From a virus, in the UHGV virus genome UHGV-0135983: a stretch of DNA of 35,851 bases; one strand, 5' to 3'. The position numbers and the translations under genes were made by a program. How positions within the stretch are numbered: position 1 is the stretch's first letter; the number at the start of each line of letters is the position of its first letter. Positions 126 through 16,994 of this stretch are shown in pieces. Below the pieces are notes generated by a model that saw only the letters and a list, made by a program, of their open reading frames with translations, had not been told where the DNA came from and did not search any database.

Positions 126-378
126 ATTTCACCACATCACGATAAACAGTACGGTAAATCACTTTGGCTTCAGCATTCGCCGTCGCCGCCTTCTGCTCGC
201 CTTCTGCTACCGCTTTTTCCTGTTTTGGCAGTCTGGCTTTAGCCTGGCTGTTCACTTGCTCAGAATGCGCGTACCAGCCTTTCAGATACCCCGCCCAGAA
301 AATACCAGCGGCCACCGCCAGCACTCCCCCAACGATCATCATTTTGGTTTTGCCGTTCACTCGTACAGCCCCCAGCAC
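1..378 (-). CDS. i-spanin (Rz-like)
   Basis: 125 aa, N-terminal TM segment (MMIVGGVLAVAAGIFWAGYL) then charged helical region; last gene of lysis cassette; GTG start with AGGAAAG upstream, ATG alternatives at 342/339. Confidence 0.7.
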   Translation of the reverse strand: MLGAVRVNGKTKMMIVGGVLAVAAGIFWAGYLKGWYAHSEQVNSQAKARLPKQEKAVAEGEQKAATANAEAKVIYRTVYRDVVKYVNDPNRTVCKFDSDAVQLRQRAIDAANAIPGFDEPAVPAK

Positions 379-893
379 GTTAGCGCACTTTCCTGCTCCC
401 GGCGGTCAACCTGCCCGTAACAGCCGTTTTTCTGTCCTTTGGTCAGTCGGCAATCCCGTCCACCATCGAAAACCCAGCGCCGGATCTCCGCGCACGCCCC
501 TTTGCGGTCGCCGGCATTGAGTTTGCGGTAGAACGTCGAGGGGAAGCATTTACCCGGACCGATGTTGTAGGGGCAGAAGCTGGCGATCCCGACCTTCTGC
601 GGCGGCGTCAGCGGAACGTGCACATTCTTTTCAACCCATGCCAGCGCCTTATCGCGCTCGATGGCGTTAACTTTCTTGCACTGAGCCTCGGTTGCTCTTT
701 GACCCTTAATGACACGCTTGCCATCTATAACGGTTACTCCGTGGCACAACGACCACACACCGCCGGGGTCAACAACGGCCACCAGCGCGTTACCTTCTTT
801 TTCGCTGATAAACTGATCGAACAGCACCGGCGCAGATGCACCGGCGGCCAGAAGCGCCAACATTGCGGCGCTGAACTTAGCTTTGTTGCTCAT
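357..893 (-). CDS. SAR endolysin, T4-lysozyme-like (phage 21 R type)
   Basis: Start taken at internal Met ([23 protein letters not shown], signal-anchor-release-like); E-x8-D-x5-T catalytic spacing ([22 protein letters not shown]); GACAEIRRW motif resembles P21 R. Confidence 0.85.
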
Positions 894-1107
894 AGTCCTG
901 TGCCTTCCGCCGGTCGTCTTTAATTTTGAAATACAGATTAGTGAGGTAGGTAAGCAACCCGAAAACAATACTTGCCAGAACGCCTATAGCCGCCCACTGG
1001 CTGGGGCTTACCTTGTCGAGAAGTTGCAGCAGCCAGAAGCTGCCGCTTACTGTGGATGTGATGTACGACGTTCCCGCCGCCACATCCGGTAGATTCTTCA
1101 TTCGCAT
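877..1107 (-). CDS. pinholin (phage 21 S-like class II holin), dual-start MRM
   Basis: 76 aa; [40 protein letters not shown] closely resembles S21; two TM segments; Met1-Arg-Met3 suggests antiholin/holin pair. Confidence 0.85.
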
Positions 1108-1183: not shown

Positions 1184-3304
1184 TTAAGCGTTGAAACCAC
1201 CGACTCGAACTTTTAGCGTAGAGAGGTCAACATTAGCAGTTATGTTTAATACACCACTCCCCGCTGAAATAGAGAATAAGCGCCGTCCGCCTGACGTTCC
1301 GCCCCCCGCCGGTGGAGTGGTATCGAGTTCACCTGTGATCGATATTGAAATGGTACCCTCACGGTTAGCAACGAGTAGCTCTAAACATTCAGCCCAGGTG
1401 AATTGTGCTGACGACCATGCGTCAATAAAAATACGCTGAGTAGTTCGGTTTGGAATTGTGATGGATTTCACTTCCCCTGTATTTACCAGCCCCTGAAAAC
1501 GGGTTCCGTAATCTATCCAGCTGATACTGTACCCTGGCGACCCCGTTGTGGGATTTTGAGATGTATACCAGGTCTGAGTCCGCACTCCTGTATGACTGAT
1601 TGACTGGAGAGGTCGAGCAAACTGATCGCGGTGGATGTATGCATTCGCCCGTATACCATTACTTTGCAGATCTATATCTGCTGTTCGGGGGTTAGGATAT
1701 AAACCAGATCCCCCCACATCAAACATCGCATAATGATTTGCTACGGCGGGTATCCAGCCATTTCTGTCGAGGTTCCTGAAAAAATCTTCAAAGGCAAGCC
1801 AGTACGATTGCTGATGCCCAAACAAATTGGGGTGAACAGTCTGTATTTCCGGCGTCCGATTGAATAATGCCGTTTCGCCATATTTAGCTACAGCATCAAA
1901 CCAGTATTTTTCAACATCAATCAGCACACAGCCCATTTCTACCGCGATTTGCCTGATGGCATCGTTTCCACGCAGGAAGCGAACACCTGCCTGTATGTTT
2001 ACACCATTCCATTCAAACGTGACGTTTGACTCTGCCGCTGAAGGGATAATGTCCTCATCGGAAACAGGAAGTGGAGAAAATGATGGCCACACCTGATTAA
2101 CAGACGGCGGCATGCTCCAGCTGTACTCAGCTATATTTGGATGCGGTGTGGTTGTCAAAACAACATCACCGCCAGCCTCCCTGACTAAATTAATCGCGGC
2201 TCTAAGACGCTGCTTAAATCCATTTTCATTGAACGTTTGCCCGGCATTATAGTTTGCCGTTGGGAAATCATTCATACCATAGACAAAGAGCGCGATATCA
2301 GGATATACACCTTCTGCGACGACGCCAGACCACTGATTTACAATGAAGTTATTTATCGACGAACCATTAGCCCCCCTGTTTTCGAAAGTAAGAGGATAAA
2401 TTCCTTGTTTGTTAAGAGTTTTATTTAAGTATTCGAAAAACTTAGCGATAGGGGCTTGCGTTGCAGGATCTGGAAGTGTTGCACCCACTTGCACTGAACT
2501 ACCGAAACCGTAAGCTCTGAACAAATCCTGATAGCCGGTAACGCCATGCCGATAAGCTGTTAATTTATTAATAAACTTTGGAAACAGAGCCTGTGATGAG
2601 CCAGACGCAGCACGAATAGATGCCTCTACCGTTCTTCCTGTTTCAGTAGCAACTAAGCCAGCACCGTCCTTCGAAGCCAGCTTAATAGCCAGATCTGCAG
2701 TTTGAGTCTGTCCGGCGATCGGTACCGGGTTTCCCTGGTCATTAAATCCCAGAAGCATATTTGAACGCGGAGCCACCGGATAAAGCATGCCTACCTGATT
2801 TTCAGGAACGCGTAACGTACGGGAAAAGTTTACCTGTTCAGTTTGGATAACGTATTTTTTTGTAGCGGCGTCCTGATTATCAACAGGGTCCAGTAAATTG
2901 CTAATTCTGTATCCCTGAGCATTAAACGGCCCACCGGACAGCGGGCGAGTTATTGCCAGTCCGAGTTCGAGGAATGCCCGTTGGATAGCCATCCAGATAC
3001 GGTCAAAGTCCTTATTAATAGTATCCGCCAGTAAGTCCCCGTTATCCTGATAATCCGTTAACCGGAACGTCGGAACAACACGCTGTAACATAACGACAGC
3101 GCCATTCGCCGGCGGCGTCAGAAAGGAGATATCACCACCATCTTTATTTCCAACCCCCGCGACGGAATACCCACTGGTAACAATATTTCCGTTTATGCTT
3201 ACCTGCAGATCGCTGGCACTAATGATATAGAACTGGTACGTAAAAACGGTTGTCAGGCCGTTAGCCGTATAGATGTTATAGGGTATCTGGTTCGGTACCG
3301 ACAT
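1184..3304 (-). CDS. tail fiber / tailspike with T7 gp17-like N-terminal domain and possible SGNH-hydrolase-like central domain
   Basis: Start chosen at MSVPNQIPYNIYTANGLTTVFTYQFYI (GGAG RBS; longer ORF to 3367 would overlap the upstream gene); N-terminus has the T7 fiber-type pattern; central GFGSS / YGMND / VHPN motifs resemble SGNH esterase blocks. Confidence 0.7.
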   Translation of the reverse strand: MSVPNQIPYNIYTANGLTTVFTYQFYIISASDLQVSINGNIVTSGYSVAGVGNKDGGDISFLTPPANGAVVMLQRVVPTFRLTDYQDNGDLLADTINKDFDRIWMAIQRAFLELGLAITRPLSGGPFNAQGYRISNLLDPVDNQDAATKKYVIQTEQVNFSRTLRVPENQVGMLYPVAPRSNMLLGFNDQGNPVPIAGQTQTADLAIKLASKDGAGLVATETGRTVEASIRAASGSSQALFPKFINKLTAYRHGVTGYQDLFRAYGFGSSVQVGATLPDPATQAPIAKFFEYLNKTLNKQGIYPLTFENRGANGSSINNFIVNQWSGVVAEGVYPDIALFVYGMNDFPTANYNAGQTFNENGFKQRLRAAINLVREAGGDVVLTTTPHPNIAEYSWSMPPSVNQVWPSFSPLPVSDEDIIPSAAESNVTFEWNGVNIQAGVRFLRGNDAIRQIAVEMGCVLIDVEKYWFDAVAKYGETALFNRTPEIQTVHPNLFGHQQSYWLAFEDFFRNLDRNGWIPAVANHYAMFDVGGSGLYPNPRTADIDLQSNGIRANAYIHRDQFARPLQSISHTGVRTQTWYTSQNPTTGSPGYSISWIDYGTRFQGLVNTGEVKSITIPNRTTQRIFIDAWSSAQFTWAECLELLVANREGTISISITGELDTTPPAGGGTSGGRRLFSISAGSGVLNITANVDLSTLKVRVGGFNA

Positions 3305-3321
3305 ATGGGGAACTCCGGCGG

Positions 3322-4932
3322 CTAATAATCTACGGCGACCATGTGATCGCCATCGTTTGGTTGCCAATGTTCCCGCGCCTGTGCGGTCGGAATCCCGACC
3401 AATTTACCTATACGTACCGGAGTTGAGCTGATAGCACCGGAGCCGGAGTCGATAAAGTCATCGGGCTGATTAGTCAGCGCCGGGTTAAAGTCTCGCATCT
3501 GGTCGTACATTGGGCCGTCGAGCACGTCGGTGTGCGCCCAAAGGAACCGCGACGACAGCGGCGCTTCGAAGGCATCGAGGATGCGTTTCTGTTTATTGGT
3601 CACGCTGAATTCTTCCCGGACGCCGCAACCTGTACCCTTCAACGCCTGAATCAGCAATTTGCCGGCGAAGCTGCCCGGGCCGTTCACCTCGACGCAAATC
3701 AGGGGGATCTGATACTTCAACACCAGCTCTTTAATCTGCATCACCTGACCGCCGGTGATTTTGTCGTTGTCGTCAAATTCTGCCAGTTCGCCCGTAAGCC
3801 CCTGGCAAACATGCCAGTACAGATGCCCGCGCGCGTCGGTGAAAATCAGAGAGAACGCCGAGGCGTCGGCCTTAACTTTGCCGGTGGCCACATCCCACCA
3901 GGCGACAGCACCAACAATTTGCGTCTGGCCAAGCCACATCGAACAGGAGCGGTTCGCGTATCGGATTTCAGGCTGAACGTTGTATTCTCGGATACGGTCA
4001 GGATCAAGACGAACCTCGCCAACCGGTTTACTGTGCAGCTGGTACTGACTGTCCCATTCGTTAATTGTGCGAGTCTCGCGGCGGCGCTTTGTCATTTCCT
4101 CCGGAGTGAATCTTTCCGGCCATTCACAATCGGCGTAACAGTCAACCGTGGTACCGGGAGCCTCGGCAAACTCGATACCATCATCGTTAAGACGATAATC
4201 AACACCTTCAACGAGCAGTCGCGCGCCAATGTGAATACCGACGAAAACATATTCAGGCCGGAACGGTAACGAGTAACGGCTAGCGGTAGCCTGTTTTTCC
4301 TCGATGCGAAATTCTTTGCCGAATAGTTTGATGGTCAGACAGTCGGCGCCCATAGATTCAACCTCATCGTAAAGGCTATCGTGGGTATGCGGCGTGCCGA
4401 TAAACAGCTTTCGCCCGCCGGGGACAAGAATGTGTGTCTGTTCACCCAGACGATAACGCAGCTTTTCCCGCGCCTCCGGCGTCTGGATATTCCGGGGCAC
4501 TTCTACGTCATCGTTCTGACATTCATCGGCACGGGCCGAGGTGACGTTAGAGAGGATCCCCTTTGCGTACATGCTGCCGTTACGCATATCCAGCGAGCCG
4601 TTAACCCACCATTGCTCAACGGTTCCCTGTCCGTCGGGTAGCATACCTTTGGTCAGCGGATGATTGCGTAAAACGTTCTGCGTATCGCGGCTGGTTTTGT
4701 ACGCGGTGCCGTCAGCTTCAGACTGGTGAAGAATGCGGTACTGGCGGTTCTGGTAATATCGCCATGCGTTATACACCGCCAGAATGGTGGATTTTCCGAA
4801 GCCACGGAAACAGCGAAGCACCGCGAGATCCCCGCGGTGTTCCAGCCAGTGGCAGGCTCGATAATGGCAGTCGGGAACCTCCCACCCCATCCGCTCCGCC
4901 CATATGATGAAAAAGGCGACGAATGAAATCAT
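3322..4932 (-). CDS. terminase large subunit (putative)
   Basis: 536 aa; Walker A-like RGFGKSTILA near N-terminus, acidic Walker B-like ADECQNDD; sits between a small putative TerS and the tail fiber. Confidence 0.6.
   Translation of the reverse strand: MISFVAFFIIWAERMGWEVPDCHYRACHWLEHRGDLAVLRCFRGFGKSTILAVYNAWRYYQNRQYRILHQSEADGTAYKTSRDTQNVLRNHPLTKGMLPDGQGTVEQWWVNGSLDMRNGSMYAKGILSNVTSARADECQNDDVEVPRNIQTPEAREKLRYRLGEQTHILVPGGRKLFIGTPHTHDSLYDEVESMGADCLTIKLFGKEFRIEEKQATASRYSLPFRPEYVFVGIHIGARLLVEGVDYRLNDDGIEFAEAPGTTVDCYADCEWPERFTPEEMTKRRRETRTINEWDSQYQLHSKPVGEVRLDPDRIREYNVQPEIRYANRSCSMWLGQTQIVGAVAWWDVATGKVKADASAFSLIFTDARGHLYWHVCQGLTGELAEFDDNDKITGGQVMQIKELVLKYQIPLICVEVNGPGSFAGKLLIQALKGTGCGVREEFSVTNKQKRILDAFEAPLSSRFLWAHTDVLDGPMYDQMRDFNPALTNQPDDFIDSGSGAISSTPVRIGKLVGIPTAQAREHWQPNDGDHMVAVDY
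3385..3402 (-). promoter_or_regulatory. conserved late-junction element copy 2 (GGTCGGAATCCCGACCAA), inside terminase 3' end, upstream of tail fiber
   Basis: Same invariant 11-mer; lies within the last ~27 codons of the upstream CDS, 84 nt before the fiber ATG at 3304. Confidence 0.5.
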
Positions 4933-5270
4933 TTTTTCCGCTGTTGTATGCGTTCGATAACTTCCTGTGCTGCACGTTCAGCGGCAGATACCTGTTGGCC
5001 CAGGCGGAATGCTTCATCGTCCGGATCCTCGCCGGGTTTAGGCGTTCCCCCGCGCGTATGCATGCCAATCAGCGAATGGACTTTTACCAGCAGGGTTAGC
5101 GATGCGGCCGCATTCTTCTTATGCCAGTACCGATCGCCGCGTTCCTGTTTGGTGTGCTTTGTGACTTCCTTCCCTGCCCCCGGCCAGTTATCCGGATCGG
5201 CTTCTTCAAGAACTACATCGGTGAGCTTATCGCTAAGAGCGGTCAGGCGGGTTTTGTAATCTGAATGCAT
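4929..5270 (-). CDS. terminase small subunit (putative, by position)
   Basis: 113 aa, immediately upstream of and overlapping the putative TerL start; no recognisable motif. Confidence 0.35.
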   Translation of the reverse strand: MHSDYKTRLTALSDKLTDVVLEEADPDNWPGAGKEVTKHTKQERGDRYWHKKNAAASLTLLVKVHSLIGMHTRGGTPKPGEDPDDEAFRLGQQVSAAERAAQEVIERIQQRKK

Positions 5271-5317
5271 AAAAAAGCCCCGTGGTTATCCATAGGGCTA
5301 TAATGTGCCGGGCTAGA

Positions 5318-5333
5318 GGTCGGAATCCTGACT
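5318..5333 (-). promoter_or_regulatory. conserved late-junction element copy 3 (GGTCGGAATCCTGACT), upstream of putative TerS
   Basis: Same invariant 11-mer, 45 nt upstream of the ATG at 5270. Confidence 0.5.
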
Positions 5334-5404
5334 ATTGCATATGCAGCGATGTACGTATAAAACTAGCCGACATTAATATAATCATTTTCATTCAGAGGCT
5401 CCCT

Positions 5405-5842
5405 GTGAAAACTTTATTCCCCTTAATACTGTTTATCGTAACTTCTACCGTTTGCGCCAAAGAAGTTAAATATGACTTTCCTCCAGATGGGGAAATGGCA
5501 AAATCACTCAAACCAGAAATTGTTGGCGTGGCTAATTATGAAATGGTCAATAGAAGCGTGCGCTTAAAAGCTTTAGATGTTGGTGAAAAAAATGTTTCTC
5601 TCCTGGTAGTCATAGGTGCTACCGACACCAGAAAACCCGTTACTCAAGCTAACATCCCTGACAAACAATCAATCTCATTAACTAAACAGCAAATTGTGAA
5701 CAAATATTGTGCACCATTCGGGTATGGCAATTGGTACTTTGATGCCTTCAAACAGCGGGGTGTAAAACTGCACTATTACTTTTACTCGGCAGTAGACACC
5801 CCGTTATTTACATTCACGGTAAATAAATCTGATTGCGATTAA
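5405..5842 (+). CDS. secreted hypothetical protein (moron, opposite strand to virion genes)
   Basis: GTG start with AGAGG RBS 7 nt upstream; N-terminal signal peptide VKTLFPLILFIVTSTVCA; AT-rich relative to flanks; TATAAT-like boxes at 5299..5304 and 5377..5382; stop overlaps the convergent internal virion gene stop. Confidence 0.5.
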   Translation: MKTLFPLILFIVTSTVCAKEVKYDFPPDGEMAKSLKPEIVGVANYEMVNRSVRLKALDVGEKNVSLLVVIGATDTRKPVTQANIPDKQSISLTKQQIVNKYCAPFGYGNWYFDAFKQRGVKLHYYFYSAVDTPLFTFTVNKSDCD

Positions 5843-8733
5843 CGCATACCGGGATCGACCTGGTTAATCAGCGGCGCAATCCAGAACAGATTATTACCGG
5901 GTAACAGCGTACGCACGTTATGCAGCACACGGTCGCCGGCGTCGCCATTCAGCACGCCGGCGGTTACATCTGTAACGGTATCCAGCAGGCCAAAGGTTGG
6001 CCCCAGAGCAGAACCGATAAAGCCGCGGCTGGCGTAACGGGACTGCGTACCGGTGCCGAGCAATGGCCCTAGCCCTACCATCCCGCCGGATGCCTTTTCA
6101 GCCATGTTGTTATATTCCATCAGTGGACCGAGGATACCAGAACGGTCGATGCCCTCGAGAACCATCTTCTGCGGGGTCAAATCAACTTCCCGGCCATTAG
6201 CCGCCTGCTTAAGCGCATAGGTCAAAGAGCCCAGGCCAATCTGGAAGGCGGTGCCGTAATAGAACTGCGCGGTACCTTCCTGCAGGCCGCCGAGCGTTGC
6301 GCGATTATAGGATGCCGTAGCAAAAGACTTAAACTGGAATACGGTTTTCCCCAGCGGGGTACTAGCCCACAGCGGCGTATCACCGATCCCCGGCGTGATA
6401 ACTGTATTGTTTACGTCTTTCAGTACCGCGGATTGCAGCAAACCGGCGGCGTACTGGTCATCCCATTTTTCGAAATTGCCGATATGCCAACCCTGAATAA
6501 CTTCGCCGTGCTTCTGAAATTCTCGCTGGATGCGTTCGGCCATCTTCTCATTGATGCCGAGTTTTGCCAGGCGCTTCGCAGGGAACGCGCCGGACAGAAT
6601 ACCGTCGGACGTGATCATGCCATTCACCGATTTGTTCATATCGTCAAAGTGGCCCATCATGGTCAACTTGCCGAACACATCGGTAATACGTTCCATGCCA
6701 GCTTCTGCAGCTGTCGTACGTGAAGAGCTATCGACCAGATCCCCCATCGTACGCGCGCGGGTATGCAGTATGGTTTCAAGTCCAACGGCCATTTTCTTCT
6801 GATCCGCCCGGCTGGCGAGGTAAGCCGGCGAGCGGGTAATCAGTGCGCCATATCCACGCATGGTATTGCTGAAGCCGTTAACCATCATGCCGCGCGCCAG
6901 ATCCGGGATAGCGGATACCGTCATGCCACCGAGTTTTGTTACAAAGTTGGCGCTACGCAGGAAAGCACCGGCGCGGACGAAAAATGATGATGGGTCATCC
7001 GGCATACCGTAGGTACCAACGAGGCGATCGCGGAGCGCCAGAATATCGCGCAGGTCGGCTTCGCGCGCCTTCGCCAGCTTTTCCTGTTCTGCCGGGCGTA
7101 AACGCATCAGCGCGTCGTATTCGTCCTGGATGGCGGCGAGCTGCGAATCCAGCGACTTATTGCCAAAGGTGCGGGTTAATTCGATTTCTGCTGAGGCTTC
7201 ACGAATATGACGCTGCAGGACGTAGTTAGCATCGCTCTCCAGATAATCTTTCATCAGGCGATCGGGAACGCTCAACGTACGCGATTTTGTGCTACCCGGC
7301 GCTTTCACCATAAAGACGTTGGCGAACTCCTGCGGAATTTTGGCCCCGACAATACGGTTGATAGTGGTATCTGCGGCAATTTCGGCATCTTCGCGGGACA
7401 TGGTTTTTTCACCGCGTGACCACCAGTCAACCAGCATGTTGCGGAATTTATCGCGCTCGCTAACGATTTTCCCTACCTTGTACACGCGTGGGAAATAGCT
7501 GGTCTGTCCCATCGCTTTCAGTTCGGCATCCGGCGGAAGTAAACCCAGTTCCTGCTGTGCCGTCTTCACACGATTGATGACCGTACGCATTGCCTGTGCC
7601 GCTTCCTGCACTTTCGCATTAACGTGCACGTCACCGTTGCGCAGCGCCTCGCCAACCTGTTCACGGAAGGCCGTATAACCCAGATCGCCGCCTTCGGCTT
7701 TGTACTGGGTGTATGCCTGCTTATTCGCAGTAACGACGGCCGCCTCTTCACGGCGCCAGCCACGTACGCGCGTCTCAGCTGCAACCGGCGTTTCAATACC
7801 GCGCAGGTTGCCTTCCAGCGTGAAGTTATTCTCTGCAAGTTCCAGCGCTGTCCGGCGCGCTTCTTTTGATGGGGATTCCATCAGGCGGGTGATCGGCGTC
7901 AGATAGCTACCGGCTTTTTTAGCCAGCTTGCCTAGTGGGCCGCCAGACACCGGTGTGAGATCATCCAGCGTAGCTTCGCGGATACGCATGGCGCCGACGC
8001 TGCCACCATTCGGTAAAGTATCCGCCAGGGCATCAGCTGCGTTGTTAATCGTTGGCGAGGCGTTCATATTATCGAGCGCCTCCGCCACTTCACGGGTGGC
8101 CGCATTTCTTACCGACGGGGTGATCATCGCGCCAGCAGTGGCAAATACACCGCTGAGAAGTGCGCCGGCAGTAATGTGTGCGGCGCTCTCCCTGGCTGTT
8201 CTGGTGTACTGCTCGTTATTGAGCGCAACCTCGCTAAGTGCGGTACCGGCAGCGCCAATAGCAACCTGAGAACCAATACGCGCAGCCAAGCTTCCCTGCG
8301 CACCAGGAATAAACATCGATGCGACCGTGACAGGGTCGATAATTCCGGCGGCGATACTAGCCAAAGTTCCTTCAGCGCCTGTTTCAGACAGCACCCGGCG
8401 GTCTTCGTTTTCATCGTCTATCTGGTTTTTAATCCAGGCGGTTTCCTCTGGGGATTTTGAATCCGCAAAGGCGGATCCCCATTGTTCGTACCCCTTTAGT
8501 TCGTTTTTATCAGAATAAGGGTTATAACCGTCCGCCGGTTCGAATTGTTTAGCCGGGCGGAACATTCCGGCCAGCAGGTTATTCTGACGAAAAGCGGCAT
8601 CCCATACAGACGGTTGCTGTTGCAGCGGTTCCGGGTTAGTTCCTTTAGGCAGAGATACATCAAAACCAGTTGGCTCCTGAAGAGCATTATCCATTACGCT
8701 TAGCGGTTCGTCAGATTGTGGGTAGAAAGGCAT
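5839..8733 (-). CDS. internal virion / ejection protein (T7 gp15/gp16-like, large)
   Basis: 964 aa, directly follows the SLT-domain protein with overlapping stop/start; position and size as in T7-type core proteins. Confidence 0.55.
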   Translation of the reverse strand: MPFYPQSDEPLSVMDNALQEPTGFDVSLPKGTNPEPLQQQPSVWDAAFRQNNLLAGMFRPAKQFEPADGYNPYSDKNELKGYEQWGSAFADSKSPEETAWIKNQIDDENEDRRVLSETGAEGTLASIAAGIIDPVTVASMFIPGAQGSLAARIGSQVAIGAAGTALSEVALNNEQYTRTARESAAHITAGALLSGVFATAGAMITPSVRNAATREVAEALDNMNASPTINNAADALADTLPNGGSVGAMRIREATLDDLTPVSGGPLGKLAKKAGSYLTPITRLMESPSKEARRTALELAENNFTLEGNLRGIETPVAAETRVRGWRREEAAVVTANKQAYTQYKAEGGDLGYTAFREQVGEALRNGDVHVNAKVQEAAQAMRTVINRVKTAQQELGLLPPDAELKAMGQTSYFPRVYKVGKIVSERDKFRNMLVDWWSRGEKTMSREDAEIAADTTINRIVGAKIPQEFANVFMVKAPGSTKSRTLSVPDRLMKDYLESDANYVLQRHIREASAEIELTRTFGNKSLDSQLAAIQDEYDALMRLRPAEQEKLAKAREADLRDILALRDRLVGTYGMPDDPSSFFVRAGAFLRSANFVTKLGGMTVSAIPDLARGMMVNGFSNTMRGYGALITRSPAYLASRADQKKMAVGLETILHTRARTMGDLVDSSSRTTAAEAGMERITDVFGKLTMMGHFDDMNKSVNGMITSDGILSGAFPAKRLAKLGINEKMAERIQREFQKHGEVIQGWHIGNFEKWDDQYAAGLLQSAVLKDVNNTVITPGIGDTPLWASTPLGKTVFQFKSFATASYNRATLGGLQEGTAQFYYGTAFQIGLGSLTYALKQAANGREVDLTPQKMVLEGIDRSGILGPLMEYNNMAEKASGGMVGLGPLLGTGTQSRYASRGFIGSALGPTFGLLDTVTDVTAGVLNGDAGDRVLHNVRTLLPGNNLFWIAPLINQVDPGMR

Positions 8734-11447
8734 TATTCATTACTCCATGAAAAGTAGTTTTTGACCCTGTTCATACGCTCATCATGTAAGCGCTGATACT
8801 GTTCATCGAGAGCACGATGTTTTTCCTTAAAGCCCCGAATATCTTTACCACGTAATATTTCCTCTTCGCCTTGTTTCTCCCTCTCCTGCTGCATTTTTTG
8901 ATATGGCCCCCATTTTTCAATGTCAGGTTTCCAGCGCATGGGACGACCAAATTTATCGTAATAAGGCTGTACGCTCTCGATTCCATCTTTATCTTTCATG
9001 CGAACAACAACTGAATATTTGCGGTCGCGAGGGGTATCCAAATCAGGCGTAATCTCTAACTCTCCACCAATACGAGATTCAGGTGTATTGGTGGTTATTA
9101 CGGGCGCAGCCCCGGAAGTTATTCCAAGCTCTGTTGGGCTCGTTAATATTTCTTTACTGCGTTCCCCATACATTAGTTCTTCTTTTTCTTCTTTCCACTG
9201 TGCAGCCTGCCACCCTGCCGGGCCATAATTATAAAGTGCTTCAGGTGCATATTTCATAAACTGGGCGCTGCCATTTACATCGCTAATACTCCATGTTCGG
9301 GATATCTGTACGTTGGTCATTTTTTTAGCTAATTCGGCGTTACCACCCGAATTGCGATAATTGATGTCATACAATGACTGGTAGTCATTACGGAATTTTA
9401 CAGCATTAGGATTCTGGTCATCCGCAGCGGGACCGCCAAAGCTGTACCATGGTTTCATGCTGCTGACTGCAGAATCCATCGCGCTGGCACGCTCTTTTTT
9501 GTACTCCTTCGTGCTCTGTGTAGAAGACAATTGAGATTTCAGTGCGTCGGTCTGGTTGTAGGTCACGTTCTGTGCTTGTTTTACAGCCGCATCGGGTGCC
9601 ATTCCAGCATCGGATAACTGTTTAACTGTCAGGTAAAAACTTTGCATATCCTTTGGCATGTCGCTAATAGATGCAGGATCCGCCCTGTACAGGGAATCGA
9701 ACAAATTAGCCCCCTGCTTCACCACGTCTGGGCTATCAGAGCGAGAAATAGCATTCAGCTGCGATGTAACTTGTGATGGGATAATGCCCGTCTGGTTAAC
9801 CTGCTGCACGATGGCGTCGTGAGTGGTGGCGTCGTTAATGCGGAAGTTAAGCGCCGATGGCGTATTGTCCGCCGCCTTCTGCATGGATTTGTTGCTCGGG
9901 TCGAGTTTCTCGCCGGAGATCAGCGCGTCGTTAAAGCGGGTAGCATCACGCTGCGCCTGAATATTGGCGTTGCTCTTCTGAACCAGCGCACTAAGTTTGC
10001 CGTACGCATCGAGTTTCAATGCGTAATCCGGGTCGTTTGCCTGCGGCTTCACTTTCGCCAGTTCGGCCTGCTGCTCTGCCGGGGTGACGTACTGGATAGC
10101 CTGGAAGGTTCTGGCGGTATCGATCGCGATATCCAGTTGCTTTACTACCTGCTGCCCTTTCTCGCCGTACATGAACATGATGGTTTCGGCATTAGGCATC
10201 GCTTCGGGAACATCACCATTGTACAGCTGAGAAAATGTATTATTAACGATGGGCTCCATCTGCTGGCGCAGCGCCGCTCGCTGTTCTCGGATCTGCGATT
10301 CGGCGATATTGTCGATTTTGTTTACCGCTACCGGGTCGAGGCCAGTTTTATTTTTGTTGTAACGGGAAAGCCAACCACGCGTTTCGGCTGGCAGCTGCTT
10401 AACGAAATCCGCCATTGAGATTTCGCCTTTGCGCGGATCGCCAACTTTAGCGATCAGCTTATCGACGTTACCCATACCCCAGTTATATGCAGCACCGGCC
10501 AGCGTTTCAGACTGATATTTTTTACTGAGCTGCCCGGCATAATCGCGCGCCAGCTGCGCATGCTGCACAGAGTCGTCCGGGTTGTACTCTACTCCACGTT
10601 TAGCCGCCAGTTCTTTCCCGGTGTCCGGCATCAACTGAAATTCACCCTGCGCGCCCGCGGGGGATGTAACAAGGCTACCATCTGCATTGCGGTGCTTGCC
10701 GCCAGATTCCACCAGGCCAACGGCGCGCATATCAAGTTCGCCGGTGCTGCTGTTGACCAGCGTAAAATCGCCATTAAGCCAGCCGGTGGGATTGGTTACT
10801 GCGTAGTTCTGCGCGCGCTGCTCCAGCGCTTTTTGATTCGCTTCGGAGACCGCACCGTCGATGCGTTCCTGCGACCAGCCGCGAGCCTGGCCATACATCT
10901 CGATCGAGTGTTTACGGGCGCTGCGTATCAGCCCCGCCTGCATCGGGTTATCGTAGGCGCTGGCCTCCTGTTCAACTGAAGAGGTCACCGTCGCGTTAAG
11001 CTGCTGGCGCTGGGCTTCCTCAGTCTGCGCCCGTTCGAAACCGCTATAGGTGCTTGTCCGGCGTACCTGCCCCGCTTTCCACTGCGCATCAAAATAGTTT
11101 AACTGGCTGGGCGGCACGCGCTTGCGCGCTTCCTCGTAATCGCCAGCGTCGGCCTTATCCATATCGATGACCACACCTGACGATTTAAAGCCCTGACGCG
11201 TAACCGTGGCGCCCGTCTCCGGGTTTTCCCAGCGGTCATTAGATTTAGCTTCCAGATCGGTCAGAATAGCCTGCGTGGCCGCGACGTCGGCTTTATCCTG
11301 ATCACGCTGCACCTGCTCTGCTACCTGCCCAGCAGCAGCGCCAAAACCAGATACTGCGTTACCCACAGCGCCCACATTGCTGACTGCGACGCGCGTAGGT
11401 TGTACCTGCGGCGTTACATTGCCAAAATTACCCGTTGGAATTCTCAC
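8733..11447 (-). CDS. internal virion protein with soluble lytic transglycosylase (SLT) domain
   Basis: 904 aa; SLT signature GLVESGG...GAQGEFQLMPDTG...AYNWGMGNV (catalytic E-S, Q-L-M-P, AYN-G blocks). Confidence 0.75.
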   Translation of the reverse strand: MRIPTGNFGNVTPQVQPTRVAVSNVGAVGNAVSGFGAAAGQVAEQVQRDQDKADVAATQAILTDLEAKSNDRWENPETGATVTRQGFKSSGVVIDMDKADAGDYEEARKRVPPSQLNYFDAQWKAGQVRRTSTYSGFERAQTEEAQRQQLNATVTSSVEQEASAYDNPMQAGLIRSARKHSIEMYGQARGWSQERIDGAVSEANQKALEQRAQNYAVTNPTGWLNGDFTLVNSSTGELDMRAVGLVESGGKHRNADGSLVTSPAGAQGEFQLMPDTGKELAAKRGVEYNPDDSVQHAQLARDYAGQLSKKYQSETLAGAAYNWGMGNVDKLIAKVGDPRKGEISMADFVKQLPAETRGWLSRYNKNKTGLDPVAVNKIDNIAESQIREQRAALRQQMEPIVNNTFSQLYNGDVPEAMPNAETIMFMYGEKGQQVVKQLDIAIDTARTFQAIQYVTPAEQQAELAKVKPQANDPDYALKLDAYGKLSALVQKSNANIQAQRDATRFNDALISGEKLDPSNKSMQKAADNTPSALNFRINDATTHDAIVQQVNQTGIIPSQVTSQLNAISRSDSPDVVKQGANLFDSLYRADPASISDMPKDMQSFYLTVKQLSDAGMAPDAAVKQAQNVTYNQTDALKSQLSSTQSTKEYKKERASAMDSAVSSMKPWYSFGGPAADDQNPNAVKFRNDYQSLYDINYRNSGGNAELAKKMTNVQISRTWSISDVNGSAQFMKYAPEALYNYGPAGWQAAQWKEEKEELMYGERSKEILTSPTELGITSGAAPVITTNTPESRIGGELEITPDLDTPRDRKYSVVVRMKDKDGIESVQPYYDKFGRPMRWKPDIEKWGPYQKMQQEREKQGEEEILRGKDIRGFKEKHRALDEQYQRLHDERMNRVKNYFSWSNE

Positions 11448-11943: not shown

Positions 11944-12396
11944 TTAAACCTCCATCGAATAAAGCAGGCCTGTTTGCTGCAGGCCGAGACGCGAATACAA
12001 CTGGCCGGTGCGTTCTGCGTGCACCCCAGTGGTGATCCCCATGTTGATAACGGCGGCGCCGTGCTCTTTTGACCAGTCGATAAAGGCGCGTGCCAGTCGC
12101 GGCCCGGCGCTGCCGCCTCGATGTTCTGGCGCGACAAATAAGCCGTATTCAAAAGCCATCAACTGGCGGGAGAAAAATTGCTCTGCGATACCGCCGCCAA
12201 GCCAGCCGATCACATGCCCGTCTTTTTCAGCGACCAGCACACAACCAGACGGCGAATAAATCAGGCTCTGCGCCAGTTCTGCACATTTATCCGCGTCAAA
12301 CGGCGAATTTAGCGAGTAACGGGACTCGAGATACATCCGGGTCCCCAACTCGATAAGCGCCGGGATATCCCCGGCTGTGGCGTTACGAATCATCAT
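11944..12396 (-). CDS. GNAT-family N-acetyltransferase
   Basis: Start taken at MMIRNATAGDIPALIELG, overlapping the tail tubular B stop as TAATG; acetyl-CoA motif A-like VAPEHRGGSAGPRLARAF; longer 216-aa ORF would overlap the upstream gene by ~200 nt. Confidence 0.7.
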   Translation of the reverse strand: MMIRNATAGDIPALIELGTRMYLESRYSLNSPFDADKCAELAQSLIYSPSGCVLVAEKDGHVIGWLGGGIAEQFFSRQLMAFEYGLFVAPEHRGGSAGPRLARAFIDWSKEHGAAVINMGITTGVHAERTGQLYSRLGLQQTGLLYSMEV

Positions 12397-14384
12397 TAGC
12401 CCCCGTTGCTGGTAAATACGATGACAATGGCGAGAAGATGAAATGGCAGCGGCTGGCGCTGCTGAATAGTCAGCGTGTCTTCTCCGCGCTCCCAGCCAAG
12501 TTTTCCCCAGTAGTGATCGCCGGTGAACAACGGCGCCGGCTGGTTGAGGATTTTTGGCCCGAACGTGCGGAACGGGATCACCTGGCCGTTGCACTCTGCG
12601 CCAGTGGTTTCGAGGAAACGCATAGTGACTTCACTTGTGCGCTTACGGGTGTTCTGCGTGGTGCCTTCAGACGTGGCGACTTCAGGTGTCAGCGTGGTAA
12701 TGGTTGTTTCAAAGTGCAGGCCGATTTCGACTTTGTAGGCTTTGCGCGATAGCGTGATTTGGCCGGATGAAACGACCGCCTGCGGCATCACTGAGCCATC
12801 AGCGACAATATCGACGGTCTCGCCTTCGAGGTGCGACAGTCCGCCCCATGTCGTTGCGCCAGTATCACTGGAGCCCGTCACGGCTGCATCGGTGTACAGG
12901 GCGTTACTGAACATTTCGACATAGCGAACGGTCTGGCCGTTGACCGTACGGCGCACAATGGCGTACACCACATCGTCAGTCGCTGAGGGAATAGTCGCTA
13001 CGGACTCAAACGCACCACTGGTGATCTGTCGTGACCACGCGACAACGTTCTGCACCCGGTCGATAGCCATTGTCACCATTACGCCATCATTGCGAACCAG
13101 CCAGGTAAACGCATCAGGTTGCTGCTGATACGCCATATCGATCACACCGCCTTCTGTGATGTGTTCCGCCAGTACAGTCATATCGTTGGCCGAGTAAGCT
13201 ACATAGCTGTCGGGGTCATAGGCGACAGCGTAGAGCTTACGGCCAGAACGCTGGACGAACATAATTTCGGTACCGACGCGCACCGGCCGGATCCCGTTGC
13301 ATCCGTACGGGCTGGGATTTTTTACCGAAATATTGGTAGGCGTAATCGCCGCATCATTGCCGGCGGTGATGGTGAACTCGCCGCCGTACGTCAGCGCAAT
13401 TAGCGTATTCATCTGCGCGAGGTGAACAATCGGGTTAAGCTGGTCAGAAGAGAGCGTAAAGCTGATCGCGTCGTCGTCATCGGTTCCCAGCTCGAAAGAG
13501 AGGTATACGCCCGATTCGCTCCACCAGATAGTTTGCGGATACTGCGGCGAACCAGCCAGAACCAACCGCTGCTGGTAAAGCGTTACCGCACCCGGGTATC
13601 CAAATTCATCCGTCCAGACAGAATCCTCGCGAGTCCAGGCGCCCGGCGATGCTGCCTGCGTTGCGCTTAAATCGGTGCGAATGGTACCGACAGCAACCTG
13701 TGCACTGGTTACGCTCTTGATCAGCACCAGACCGCTGTTAATCCTTACGTACGAGCCCACATCTTCAGGCACCCAGCCATCACCGGTGAGCGTTCCGTCT
13801 CCGCTTTCTGGCGGTTCATCATCGCTCAGTGTCAGCGTGATTTCCGAGCCGACGAATTCTTTCACTGATGGCTTGCACCACTTTTGCGGTGTGTCGCGTA
13901 CTTCGTCGAAGGGTTCAACGATAAACGGCGCCGGTTCCAGAACCCAATCGGTTTGCCCGCGTCGCTGCAGGCGATACGGTTTAACGGCCTGATGCACCAG
14001 AAACATGGTATCGGCGCCCTGAACGTAATTTACCGATGGCAGCATGTCAGAGGTGTACGGGCTGGCGATTTCATACGGCGTGTTATCGTCGTTCACCAGC
14101 TGCTTACCGTCCTGGTAAATTCGCAGATAGCCGTCGCCAAATTCCAGAATGTACGCCTGCGTGCGGTTAAAAACGTACGGAATGAGGCGGGATTTTTTAT
14201 CACCGTACTTTGTGGCCGCTACATACTGCGAACCGGGACGACGCATTACCCCGCCCTGTACCACGACCACGCTATTTTCCAGCGTCTTCGCGCCGTTCGC
14301 ATAGCGATCGATATCCACGCGCCCCATAAGACGTGGGGAAATTTCGCCGGCGGTGAAGTTGGTTTTAATCAGACTGGCGCGCAT
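12396..14384 (-). CDS. tail tubular protein B (T7 gp12-like)
   Basis: Start at MRASLIKTNFTAGEISPRL (GAGG RBS), similar in pattern to the gp12 N-terminus; follows tail tubular A. Confidence 0.7.
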   Translation of the reverse strand: MRASLIKTNFTAGEISPRLMGRVDIDRYANGAKTLENSVVVVQGGVMRRPGSQYVAATKYGDKKSRLIPYVFNRTQAYILEFGDGYLRIYQDGKQLVNDDNTPYEIASPYTSDMLPSVNYVQGADTMFLVHQAVKPYRLQRRGQTDWVLEPAPFIVEPFDEVRDTPQKWCKPSVKEFVGSEITLTLSDDEPPESGDGTLTGDGWVPEDVGSYVRINSGLVLIKSVTSAQVAVGTIRTDLSATQAASPGAWTREDSVWTDEFGYPGAVTLYQQRLVLAGSPQYPQTIWWSESGVYLSFELGTDDDDAISFTLSSDQLNPIVHLAQMNTLIALTYGGEFTITAGNDAAITPTNISVKNPSPYGCNGIRPVRVGTEIMFVQRSGRKLYAVAYDPDSYVAYSANDMTVLAEHITEGGVIDMAYQQQPDAFTWLVRNDGVMVTMAIDRVQNVVAWSRQITSGAFESVATIPSATDDVVYAIVRRTVNGQTVRYVEMFSNALYTDAAVTGSSDTGATTWGGLSHLEGETVDIVADGSVMPQAVVSSGQITLSRKAYKVEIGLHFETTITTLTPEVATSEGTTQNTRKRTSEVTMRFLETTGAECNGQVIPFRTFGPKILNQPAPLFTGDHYWGKLGWERGEDTLTIQQRQPLPFHLLAIVIVFTSNGG

Positions 14385-16109: not shown

Positions 16110-16994
16110 TTACCCTCTGGGTTCTTTTATCCTATAACCTGTGCCAGGCATGAATTCATCAATAACTCTTGCCGCGTGACCTATAACTCGAAACGCTGAG
16201 CGTGCTTCTTCATCGGTAATTTTAGTCGCTTTAGTCGGGTCATAATCAGGAGTTTGGTCATCGTCAAAATGTACTCGATAGCCAAATTTTGATATTTCTC
16301 TGAAAATGGAACTAACTGACCTATCAATAGTTGCCATAGTGTCCATTAATCTATTTTTATCCTCCTCAATTTTATTTTTTATTTTCTCATAAGGGCCTAG
16401 CTCATCTACTAAATCTTTAAGAGCATCCGACTTAGAATTTATTTCACCTTCAATTTCATTAAGTTTCCCTTCCGCCAACTCAAGCTTCGAACTTAAAATA
16501 TTAAATTGTTCTTCAGCTTCTTCATATGACTTCTTAATGCTCTCGATATCATGTGTAACTTTAGTAACCTTGAGTTCTTCTTCTGCATTCCTTTTTGCAA
16601 ACAGAGATGTTTGATAAGCTAGTGCGCTATCTGCTTTAGCTGTGTATTCAGCAATGATTTCACGAGCCTCACTCTCAGATTTTGCCCTTTTGATATCGTT
16701 ACCATCAGCGATTTTTTGCGCGCATCTTTGAAAAAAACTCACAGCATGACTAGCATAAGGAAAAAGAACGGCAATAATAAAACCCAAAAGGATAGGAGCA
16801 ACTACAGAATACCAAAAAATACATGGTTCACTTTTCACTTTAATGATTCTATCTTGTAGTTCTCCACTACCCATTAAAACTATCAATAAACTATCCCAGT
16901 TAAACCCCAGCCATGAGAGGACTATGAACCCGAAAAGAGGAGTGTTTATTCTTTGAATTAAAGTTTTCTTTACCGCATCAGCTAATTCGTCCAT
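16110..16994 (-). CDS. membrane-anchored coiled-coil protein (AT-rich moron between scaffold and capsid)
   Basis: 294 aa; two predicted TM helices then a long Glu/Lys-rich coiled-coil region; visibly AT-rich; AAGGG RBS; candidate promoter and an upstream terminator. Confidence 0.6.
   Translation of the reverse strand: MDELADAVKKTLIQRINTPLFGFIVLSWLGFNWDSLLIVLMGSGELQDRIIKVKSEPCIFWYSVVAPILLGFIIAVLFPYASHAVSFFQRCAQKIADGNDIKRAKSESEAREIIAEYTAKADSALAYQTSLFAKRNAEEELKVTKVTHDIESIKKSYEEAEEQFNILSSKLELAEGKLNEIEGEINSKSDALKDLVDELGPYEKIKNKIEEDKNRLMDTMATIDRSVSSIFREISKFGYRVHFDDDQTPDYDPTKATKITDEEARSAFRVIGHAARVIDEFMPGTGYRIKEPRG

Follow-up and report, generated by a model that had tools for sequence, protein, structure and literature searches.

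A conserved insertion slot beside the last ejection gene of temperate podoviruses, and the antisense gene for a putatively exported protein that it holds in UHGV-0135983

What is a small, AT-rich gene doing on the strand opposite to the late genes of a temperate podovirus, between its last internal virion (ejection) gene and its terminase genes, and what could its product do for the prophage or for the bacterium that carries it? This question is raised by the virus genome UHGV-0135983, of which a stretch of 35,851 nucleotides (nt), referred to here as the window, was analysed, and in which a sequence-only reading had singled out positions 5271-5842 as a moron that encodes a secreted protein, possibly a lysogenic-conversion or exclusion factor made in the lysogen. 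The gene, called the cargo gene below, very probably specifies a functional, exported moron product, and the place that it occupies, the cargo slot, is, as judged from the comparison of related loci, a recombinational moron hot spot with a precise and recurrent insertion point. The features of the slot and of its insert, given by their positions in the window, are the following.

5271-5334, minus strand: backbone element, the fixed right boundary of the slot, lying outside the moron; found in 90 of 90 loci that keep the junction with the gene at the small-terminase (terS) position, including 19 loci with an empty slot
5277-5298, minus strand: hairpin 2, terminator-like, followed by a U6 run at 5271-5276, which immediately precedes the start codon (ATG) of the terS-position gene
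5319-5332, minus strand: hairpin 1, within the backbone element
5335-5404, plus strand: insert-borne upstream region with the putative promoter, containing the palindrome TGCATATGCA at 5336-5345, TATAAA at 5356-5361, TATAAT at 5377-5382 and AGAGG at 5394-5398
5405-5842, plus strand: cargo gene of 145 codons with a GTG start and a TAA stop at 5840-5842, delimited by its open reading frame and by comparison with homologues
5405-5458, plus strand: Sec signal peptide of the signal peptidase I type, MKTLFPLILFIVTSTVCA, 18 residues, recognized by hydropathy
5459-5839, plus strand: mature domain of 127 residues, predicted to be alpha/beta with an AspS/PA3611-like fold, with two invariant cysteines, C84 and C126 in the numbering of the mature protein
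5839-5842, convergent: stop-codon junction TTAA, read from the sequence, where the stops of the two convergent genes (cargo and ejection) share bases and leave no intergenic space

The nature of the slot became apparent from related loci, which were collected by using the terS-position protein as an anchor and in each of which the stop of the ejection gene was then located. Among 93 related loci, 90 of them obtained in this manner, 19 have an empty slot, with nothing except 64 nt separating the end of the ejection gene from the terS-position gene, and 71 have a filled one, with 320-1,890 nt between that stop and the conserved element; in the window the insert measures approximately 504 nt (about 5335-5841) and is of foreign base composition. 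It was on the basis of these empty and filled slots, together with the deviant composition of the insert, that the term moron proposed by the sequence-only reading could be upheld. The cargo is highly diverse, comprising about 23 mutually unrelated BLAST families that are inserted in either orientation, and about 20 of these 23 families possess a signal peptide, a lipobox or a transmembrane segment, as compared to 10 of 85 control open reading frames of the window when judged by the same heuristic. When ten cargo families were tested against Pfam, an Acyl_transf_3 enzyme was the only match, and none of the cargo families tested matches PADLOC. For example, the flanks in a prophage of Escherichia coli 23GD11002 (L001) are 90% identical to those of the window, and its slot is occupied by another gene whose product has a signal peptide. 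The comparison of filled and empty slots revealed neither a target-site duplication nor terminal repeats, and a transposon-like insertion of the cargo is not supported by it.

Two of the other cargo types deserve a separate mention. The cargo of the E. coli prophage L001 (6519-6911, WP_142890381.1, 130 residues), which is also present in L064, L052 and L061, gave a sub-threshold match to the Rap1a immunity family of the type VI secretion system (T6SS; PF18602, E 0.036) and no PDB sequence match. In L043 and L054 the slot holds, in sense orientation, a 371-residue integral-membrane acyltransferase of the Acyl_transf_3 family (E 1e-28), of the sort by which O-antigen is acetylated in lysogenic conversion, and the slot accordingly also carries classical conversion genes.

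The right boundary of the slot is formed by the backbone element, which on the late strand reads (A/G)GTC(A/G)GGA(T/A)(T/A)CCGACC, followed by about 16 variable nt and then by CATCATAGCCC-loop-GGGGC-U6. Compensatory changes are found in five base pairs of hairpin 2, and between the end of this hairpin with its U6 run and the ATG of the terS-position gene there is a distance of one base. From its sequence, this hairpin looks like an intrinsic terminator placed inside the late operon; it would also stop the transcripts of cargo that is inserted in sense orientation, and the run of G residues in its stem may also serve as the ribosome-binding site.

With regard to the cargo gene itself, the longest open reading frame on the plus strand, antisense to the late genes, extends from 5282 to 5842, and its true start is the GTG at 5405, preceded by the Shine-Dalgarno sequence AGAGG at 5394-5398. 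In a homologue that is 81% identical (L099) the same codon is TTG and is preceded by AGGAG, and another locus (L013) has a 1-nt indel within the supposed upstream extension of the frame. Coding of the segment 5282-5404 was rejected in view of the L013 indel, the TTG and AGGAG of L099, and the overlap of this segment with sequence that is kept beside unrelated cargo. The end of the originally proposed feature, 5842, holds, and its beginning does not, since the gene starts neither at 5271 nor at 5282; similarly, the internal virion and terminase genes were correctly named as flanks, except that the immediate neighbour is a small terminase by position only (phrog_9277). The description of the gene as AT-rich and antisense to the surrounding late operon has been confirmed, as it is embedded among minus-strand late genes and has a GC content of 0.39 and a GC content at third codon positions (GC3) of 0.37, versus 0.54-0.56 and a GC3 of 0.59 in the flanking genes (0.555 and 0.59 in the adjoining ejection gene, 5839-8733) and 0.519 in the window as a whole. 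Comparison with L099 gave a synonymous divergence (dS) of 1.05, a non-synonymous divergence (dN) of 0.117 and a dN/dS of 0.11, with values of 0.08 for the mature part and 0.51 for the signal peptide, as is commonly seen in exported proteins. At the level of sequence comparison, these data show that the cargo gene is genuine and under purifying selection.

The claim of a clear signal peptide is likewise sustained, since the protein begins with MKTLFPLILFIVTSTVCA, followed by KE, and every homologue has an equivalent N-terminus, of which the hydrophobic character is kept and the sequence is not. There is a lysine at position 2 and a V-x-A cleavage motif, the peptide ending in STVCA before the KE of the mature chain, and the 15-residue hydrophobic core (residues 3-17) has a mean Kyte-Doolittle value of 2.16 versus a maximum of 1.26 elsewhere in the protein. 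No lipobox is present; the homologues have cleavage sites of the A-x-A type and no cysteine at position +1. This cleavable signal peptide is the only hydrophobic segment, and the remainder is predicted to fold as a soluble alpha/beta domain. A secreted or periplasmic location of the product is supported by its primary structure and by its two invariant cysteines.

A HMMER scan of 1.84 billion representative sequences recovered seven relatives of the cargo protein, and a profile search of 5.8 billion proteins recovered 14 clusters, confined to Enterobacterales, all annotated as hypothetical and without a Pfam domain. This family, here designated family A, has 14 invariant columns, including two cysteines, and homologues that are 36-50% identical are conserved in length. 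No match to the cargo protein was found in Pfam (at E values up to 10), NCBIfam or PHROGs, nor by tblastn against 50,697 phage genomes; a PDB search with the single sequence found no match, and one with the profile found only chance matches to myoglobin. Family A is a new and unannotated protein family.

Its fold was modelled with AlphaFold2, for which the single sequence gave a predicted local distance difference test (pLDDT) score of 38.6, and an alignment of 13 sequences gave a pLDDT of 91.9 and a predicted template-modelling (pTM) score of 0.84. The top Foldseek matches to the model were 3npd, EpsS (6i2v) and AspS, with a probability of 1.0 and template-modelling (TM) scores of 0.46-0.58, and PA3611 and AspS were the top structural matches by two methods. 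AspS and EpsS are secretin-binding pilotins of the Vibrio type, serving the type II secretion system, and PA3611 is a soluble periplasmic protein of Pseudomonas aeruginosa. It has been shown that, in structure, AspS and PA3611 resemble one another more closely than either resembles any other protein, with a conserved disulfide in common, and that PA3611 is exported and not lipidated; AspS, a binder of a secretin peptide segment, has been proposed to bind the S-domain of secretins via a hydrophobic crevice (PMC3542185). In the model, the alpha/beta fold is common to the cargo protein, AspS/EpsS and PA3611, the cargo chain being about 15-20 residues longer, and the invariant cysteines, C84 after the long helix and C126 at the C-terminus of the mature chain, follow the order of the AspS disulfide C74-C111, which is consistent with an AspS/PA3611-type disulfide. 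The modelled cargo protein thus has the AspS/PA3611 fold and yet is not a pilotin, because it lacks a lipobox; in contrast to the AspS/EpsS pilotins, it is also phage-borne, and no relationship between them was detected at the sequence level.

A further property of family A is its attachment to the ejection gene. All eight distinct members with a readable context converge on the 3' end of an ejection gene for a protein of 962-964 residues, and their stops overlap or abut that of the ejection gene down to an identity of 37% (L093, L094, L100, L102, L105). On the other hand, the opposite flank varies, consisting of the terS-position gene, of Bro-N/DUF2335/tailspike modules or of an AlpA/integrase end. 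The cargo proteins are 37-42% identical where the ejection proteins are 73-83% identical, and the last 100 residues of the ejection proteins are 93-97% identical.

The same convergent position is occupied by other cargo families as well. TL-2011b is an isolated temperate phage associated with enterohaemorrhagic E. coli, and at this position (L108, 3422-3985) it encodes AEW24592.1, annotated as a hypothetical protein and belonging to a family of 29 clusters, all of them unannotated, which is designated family E. Alignments between cargo families with hhalign were run on the mature parts only; the higher score between families A and D that is obtained with the signal peptides included is driven in part by these. 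Families A and E aligned with a probability of 88% (E 3e-6) in a C-terminal stretch of 59 columns that brings both cysteines into register, and it is plausible from this alignment, although not proven, that they represent an ancient and rapidly diverging resident gene. The wider idea that all antisense cargos form one superfamily was found to be unsupported, the hhalign probabilities being 15% for A versus D and 0.2% for E versus D.

Whether the gene is expressed, and when, depends on the region upstream of it. Since it is antisense to the late operon, the cargo gene would have to use a weak promoter of its own in the AT-rich upstream region, and the protein is therefore probably made in the lysogen; on balance, expression from the prophage is somewhat more likely than not. 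The hexamer TATAAT is under-represented in the window, with seven copies on both strands versus 13.6 +/- 3.6 expected from shuffled sequences, and two of its three plus-strand copies, at 5299-5304 and at 5377-5382, fall in an 84-nt interval shortly before the cargo gene. The first of these is part of the conserved backbone element, which occurs in empty slots too, and the second, a perfect TATAAT 22 nt before the start of the cargo gene, is accompanied by a -35 match of only 2/6. The TATAAT-like boxes mentioned in the sequence-only reading are therefore present, but their value as a promoter is reduced by the backbone origin of one and the poor -35 of the other, and no promoter was called there by the scan described below. 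The claim that no terminator precedes the convergence on the internal virion gene has stood up: the two stops overlap in TTAA, and a consensus scan found no terminator-like site within 4900-6300, which leaves the cargo gene without the terminator of its own that is expected of a moron.

Two palindromes were observed in this region. The 10-nt palindrome TGCATATGCA is perfect, is situated at the border of the insert some 60 nt before the start codon of the cargo gene, and is kept in the close family-A loci, with one change in L099; the L094 context has a different, 12-nt palindrome, GTGACATGTCAC, at a similar position. Both may be sites for a regulator.

The window of 35.9 kb represents almost the whole of a temperate podovirus prophage that is T7-like and related to TL-2011b, and the late genes around the cargo gene form a continuous block on the minus strand. 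The nearest isolated phages, the Yersinia phages YeP4-6 and E. coli phage TL-2011b, are distant; in TL-2011b, a portion of the ejection gene is 74% identical at the DNA level. The homologues of the cargo protein have Klebsiella pneumoniae and its relatives as sources. The genes that surround the slot are as follows.

357-968, minus strand: lysozyme, one of the lysis genes
1184-3367, minus strand: tailspike with an SGNH domain and a T7 tail-fibre N-terminus
3322-4932, minus strand: terL, with the Pfam T7 terminase RNaseH-like domain
4929-5270, minus strand: gene of 113 codons at the terS position, immediately preceding terL (phrog_9277, function unknown, E 7e-41)
5839-8733, minus strand: internal virion (ejection) protein of 964 residues, with which the ejectosome cluster ends (phrog_342, 'internal virion protein', E 9e-194)
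8733-11447, minus strand: internal virion (ejection) protein of 904 residues with a lytic transglycosylase (SLT) domain (Pfam SLT, E 5e-08)

Beyond the ejection genes follow those for a gp14-like protein, the capsid, the portal, a DnaB helicase and others, with the integrase from 34832 onward. Two further genes of this prophage were noted in passing. A GNAT acetyltransferase gene (11944-12594, minus strand; Acetyltransf_1, E 8.5e-12) lies within the ejection cluster beside the gp14-like gene, and its counterpart in the E. coli relative likewise has a GNAT annotation. The stretch 16110-16994 (minus strand, GC 0.35), which is richer in AT than any other part of the window and is situated between the capsid gene and a gene for a 282-residue protein, encodes a product of 294 residues with two N-terminal hydrophobic segments, a long coiled-coil and no significant Pfam family, and may be a second moron inside the structural operon.

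What, then, could the product of the cargo gene do? The explanation that we favour, and to which we nevertheless assign somewhat less than an even chance when it is taken as a whole, is that of an exported, lysogen-made moron protein that excludes superinfecting phages at the stage of DNA delivery. According to this explanation, the AT-rich upstream region of the insert, with its perfect -10 box at 5377-5382, would give rise to a cargo transcript in the lysogen, which would read antisense into the ejection gene, because no terminator intervenes, until stopped by Rho, and which would be overridden by late transcription upon induction. The mature, disulfide-bonded protein in the periplasm would probably be a binding protein rather than an enzyme, a role that the modelled AspS/PA3611-like fold would fit, and it would bind to the trans-periplasmic ejectosome of incoming related podophages, or interfere with its peptidoglycan-cutting step, such that DNA delivery is blocked. 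The 904-residue ejection protein with its SLT domain belongs to a possible class of periplasmic targets. Exclusion that acts specifically on the ejection step, with P22 SieA as its analogue in logic and genomic place and T4 Spackle in cell compartment, must itself be regarded as doubtful. A more far-reaching version, in which families A and E (E less surely) would constitute a fast-evolving superfamily of soluble, disulfide-bonded, pilotin-fold periplasmic proteins that is genetically tethered to the last ejectosome gene of temperate T7-like podophages and that captures a peptide of incoming ejection proteins, or of a host partner that these require, and so aborts assembly of the channel, is speculative and rather unlikely.

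In favour of exclusion are the enrichment of the cargo slot in envelope proteins and the attachment of family A to the ejection gene. In addition, the slot of L073 (IMGVR_UViG_2684622895_000004) holds, antisense to the late genes, the gene for a protein of 137-153 residues with a C-terminal hydrophobic membrane anchor, of which residues 31-96 (in the 137-residue form) copy residues 32-106 of the ejection protein with 47% identity (E 3e-17), and which by this resemblance is a candidate for a membrane-tethered decoy of the N-terminal region of that protein.

Known systems offer several parallels. It has been demonstrated that the superinfection-exclusion gene sieA of phage P22, invariably placed between the tailspike gene 9 and the ejection gene 16, is a prophage-expressed gene that prevents the injection of DNA, and that mutations allowing escape from SieA map to the ejection proteins gp16 and gp20 (PMC10883804). 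Like the cargo gene, sieA is an accessory gene directly downstream of the last ejection gene of a temperate podovirus (PMC10883804), and its product is, as predicted for the cargo protein, envelope-located, and is like it highly divergent between phages and missing from many relatives; moreover, the contexts of L093 and L102, with adjoining Bro-N antirepressor-type genes and a tailspike, resemble the immI region of P22. The likeness has its limits, in that the ejection proteins of the window phage are of the T7 type whereas those of P22 are of the P22 type, and no SieA family was recovered in the profile searches.

Spackle (Sp) of phage T4 is a periplasmic superinfection-exclusion protein, made early in infection by this lytic phage, that inhibits the tail lysozyme gp5, and it illustrates that a soluble periplasmic protein can act on the cell-wall-penetrating apparatus of an incoming phage. 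It is, like the predicted cargo product, small, signal-peptide-bearing, soluble and periplasmic, and the ejection neighbour in the window has an SLT domain; PDB searches revealed no sequence or structural match between Spackle and the cargo protein. Classical morons and receptor-blocking lipoproteins encoded next to the cognate virion gene include HK97 gp15, lambda bor and lom, T5 Llp and the lambdoid Cor. The cargo gene is a classical moron in kind: it is an extra gene of deviant composition placed where relatives have two adjoining genes, its predicted product belongs to the envelope, and it stands beside a virion gene that it may counter. By contrast, the classical definition includes an own promoter and terminator, whereas the cargo gene has a -10-like box only and no terminator, and its product is not a lipoprotein.

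Several observations weigh against exclusion at DNA delivery. SieA is a polytopic inner-membrane protein, whereas the cargo protein is predicted from its sequence to be soluble and periplasmic with a cleaved signal peptide. A scan for sigma-70 consensus promoters on the plus strand upstream of the cargo gene found none, and a relaxed search yielded best -35 matches of 2-3/6 and no motif that is conserved across the different contexts of the cargo family. The ejection gene of the E. coli prophage L001 is 95-100% identical over most of its length and is accompanied by another cargo family. The presence of different cargo on near-identical ejection genes implies that cargo type does not co-vary tightly with ejection-protein type and weakens the case for a specific pairing between cargo and ejectosome; the linkage could reflect mere co-transfer through recombination in the conserved 3' end of the ejection gene. 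Finally, searches of PADLOC, PHROGs, Pfam and NCBIfam with the cargo protein were negative, the viral structures of BFVD contain no convincing match to its model (best E 0.012, TM 0.37), and no known defence protein resembles it.

The structural resemblance also permits a different interpretation, in which the protein is a soluble, pilotin-like secretin binder that grips the C-terminal S-domain of a secretin of the host or of a phage (type II secretion system, T2SS; type IV pilus; pIV of filamentous phages). As a consequence, the secretin would be stabilised, mistargeted or plugged, and secretion or piliation would be altered, or phages that depend on a secretin or pilus would be blocked. We consider both this activity and its consequence improbable: the sequence identity is only 13-17% and the TM score about 0.5, there is no Pfam or PDB sequence match even with the profile, a protein without a lipobox cannot be a true pilotin, and no secretin gene is found in the window or in any of the family-A contexts. 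The invariable linkage to the ejection gene would also be left unexplained. In Klebsiella, the pilotin of the T2SS is PulS, which is unrelated.

An equally improbable proposal is that of an orphan periplasmic immunity protein, which would protect against a wall- or membrane-targeting toxin of a competitor (a T6SS effector or a bacteriocin) and so bring an advantage to the lysogen. Such a function would suit a protein that, from its sequence, appears small, periplasmic, disulfide-bonded and fast-evolving, and the signal-peptide protein in the slot of the sister E. coli prophage has its faint match to Rap1a (PF18602, E 0.036, below the cut-off). Nevertheless, this hint concerns a different protein, is sub-threshold and finds no support in PDB sequences; the cargo protein itself matches no immunity family or structure, including Rap1a/Tai4 and PF18602, no effector gene is adjacent, and family A occurs only beside prophage ejection genes and never at T6SS or bacteriocin loci. 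T6SS immunity as a theme of the slot at large was reduced to a weak rival, the sub-threshold PF18602 hit (E 0.036) being its only support.

It is slightly less probable again that the protein is some other lysogenic-conversion factor, involved in envelope remodelling, stress tolerance or adhesion, or acting as a host-interaction protein when freed from the periplasm. The O-acyltransferase-type protein of the Acyl_transf_3 family found in the slots of L043 and L054 speaks for this, as does the structural neighbour PA3611, which has been reported to be a secreted protein that acts on airway epithelial cells (PMC8860233). However, no motif or domain of the cargo protein points in this direction, and the attachment to the ejection gene and the decoy-like cargo of L073 fit a conflict between phages better.

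A function in the lytic cycle, either the masking of receptors or debris for the benefit of the progeny, as in the case of T5 Llp, or assistance in the envelope steps of lysis or ejection, appears quite improbable. The maintenance of family A alongside a structural gene across phages of differing genome order, and the lack of a demonstrable lysogenic promoter, would be in keeping with it, but an antisense cargo gene would collide head-on with strong late transcription, and its absence from 19 otherwise similar phages and its replaceability by unrelated genes indicate that it is not needed in the lytic cycle. Lastly, the notion of a non-functional sequence, whether a chance open reading frame or a decaying remnant in AT-rich spacer DNA, to which the missing database annotation and the single-sequence pLDDT of 38.6 might lend some colour, is effectively refuted by the dN/dS of 0.11 at a dS of 1.05, by homologues that keep the length, the signal peptide and 14 invariant residues, and by the pLDDT of 91.9 obtained with the alignment.

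In Klebsiella and other Enterobacterales, prophage morons directed to the envelope influence the resistance of the cells to phages, their ability to compete and, in some cases, their virulence, and most of these morons are unannotated. In the present case, a hypothetical protein is now defined by its start codon, export signal, fold and family, and the cargo slot has been mapped together with its approximately 23 cargo families, most of them exported or membrane proteins. Taken singly the gene is ordinary, and it is the sharply defined slot in combination with the decoy-like cargo that makes a testable case, of moderate interest, for a reservoir of anti-ejection functions. If exclusion at DNA delivery were false, the cargo gene would be one more candidate for lysogenic conversion. 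If it were true, natural inhibitors of DNA delivery by podophages would be concentrated in this slot, with a bearing on host-range failures in the phage therapy of Klebsiella; in the more far-reaching version, superinfection exclusion would gain a new class that is confined to the periplasm, and the slot would be a general anti-ejection arsenal that includes decoys of ejection proteins.

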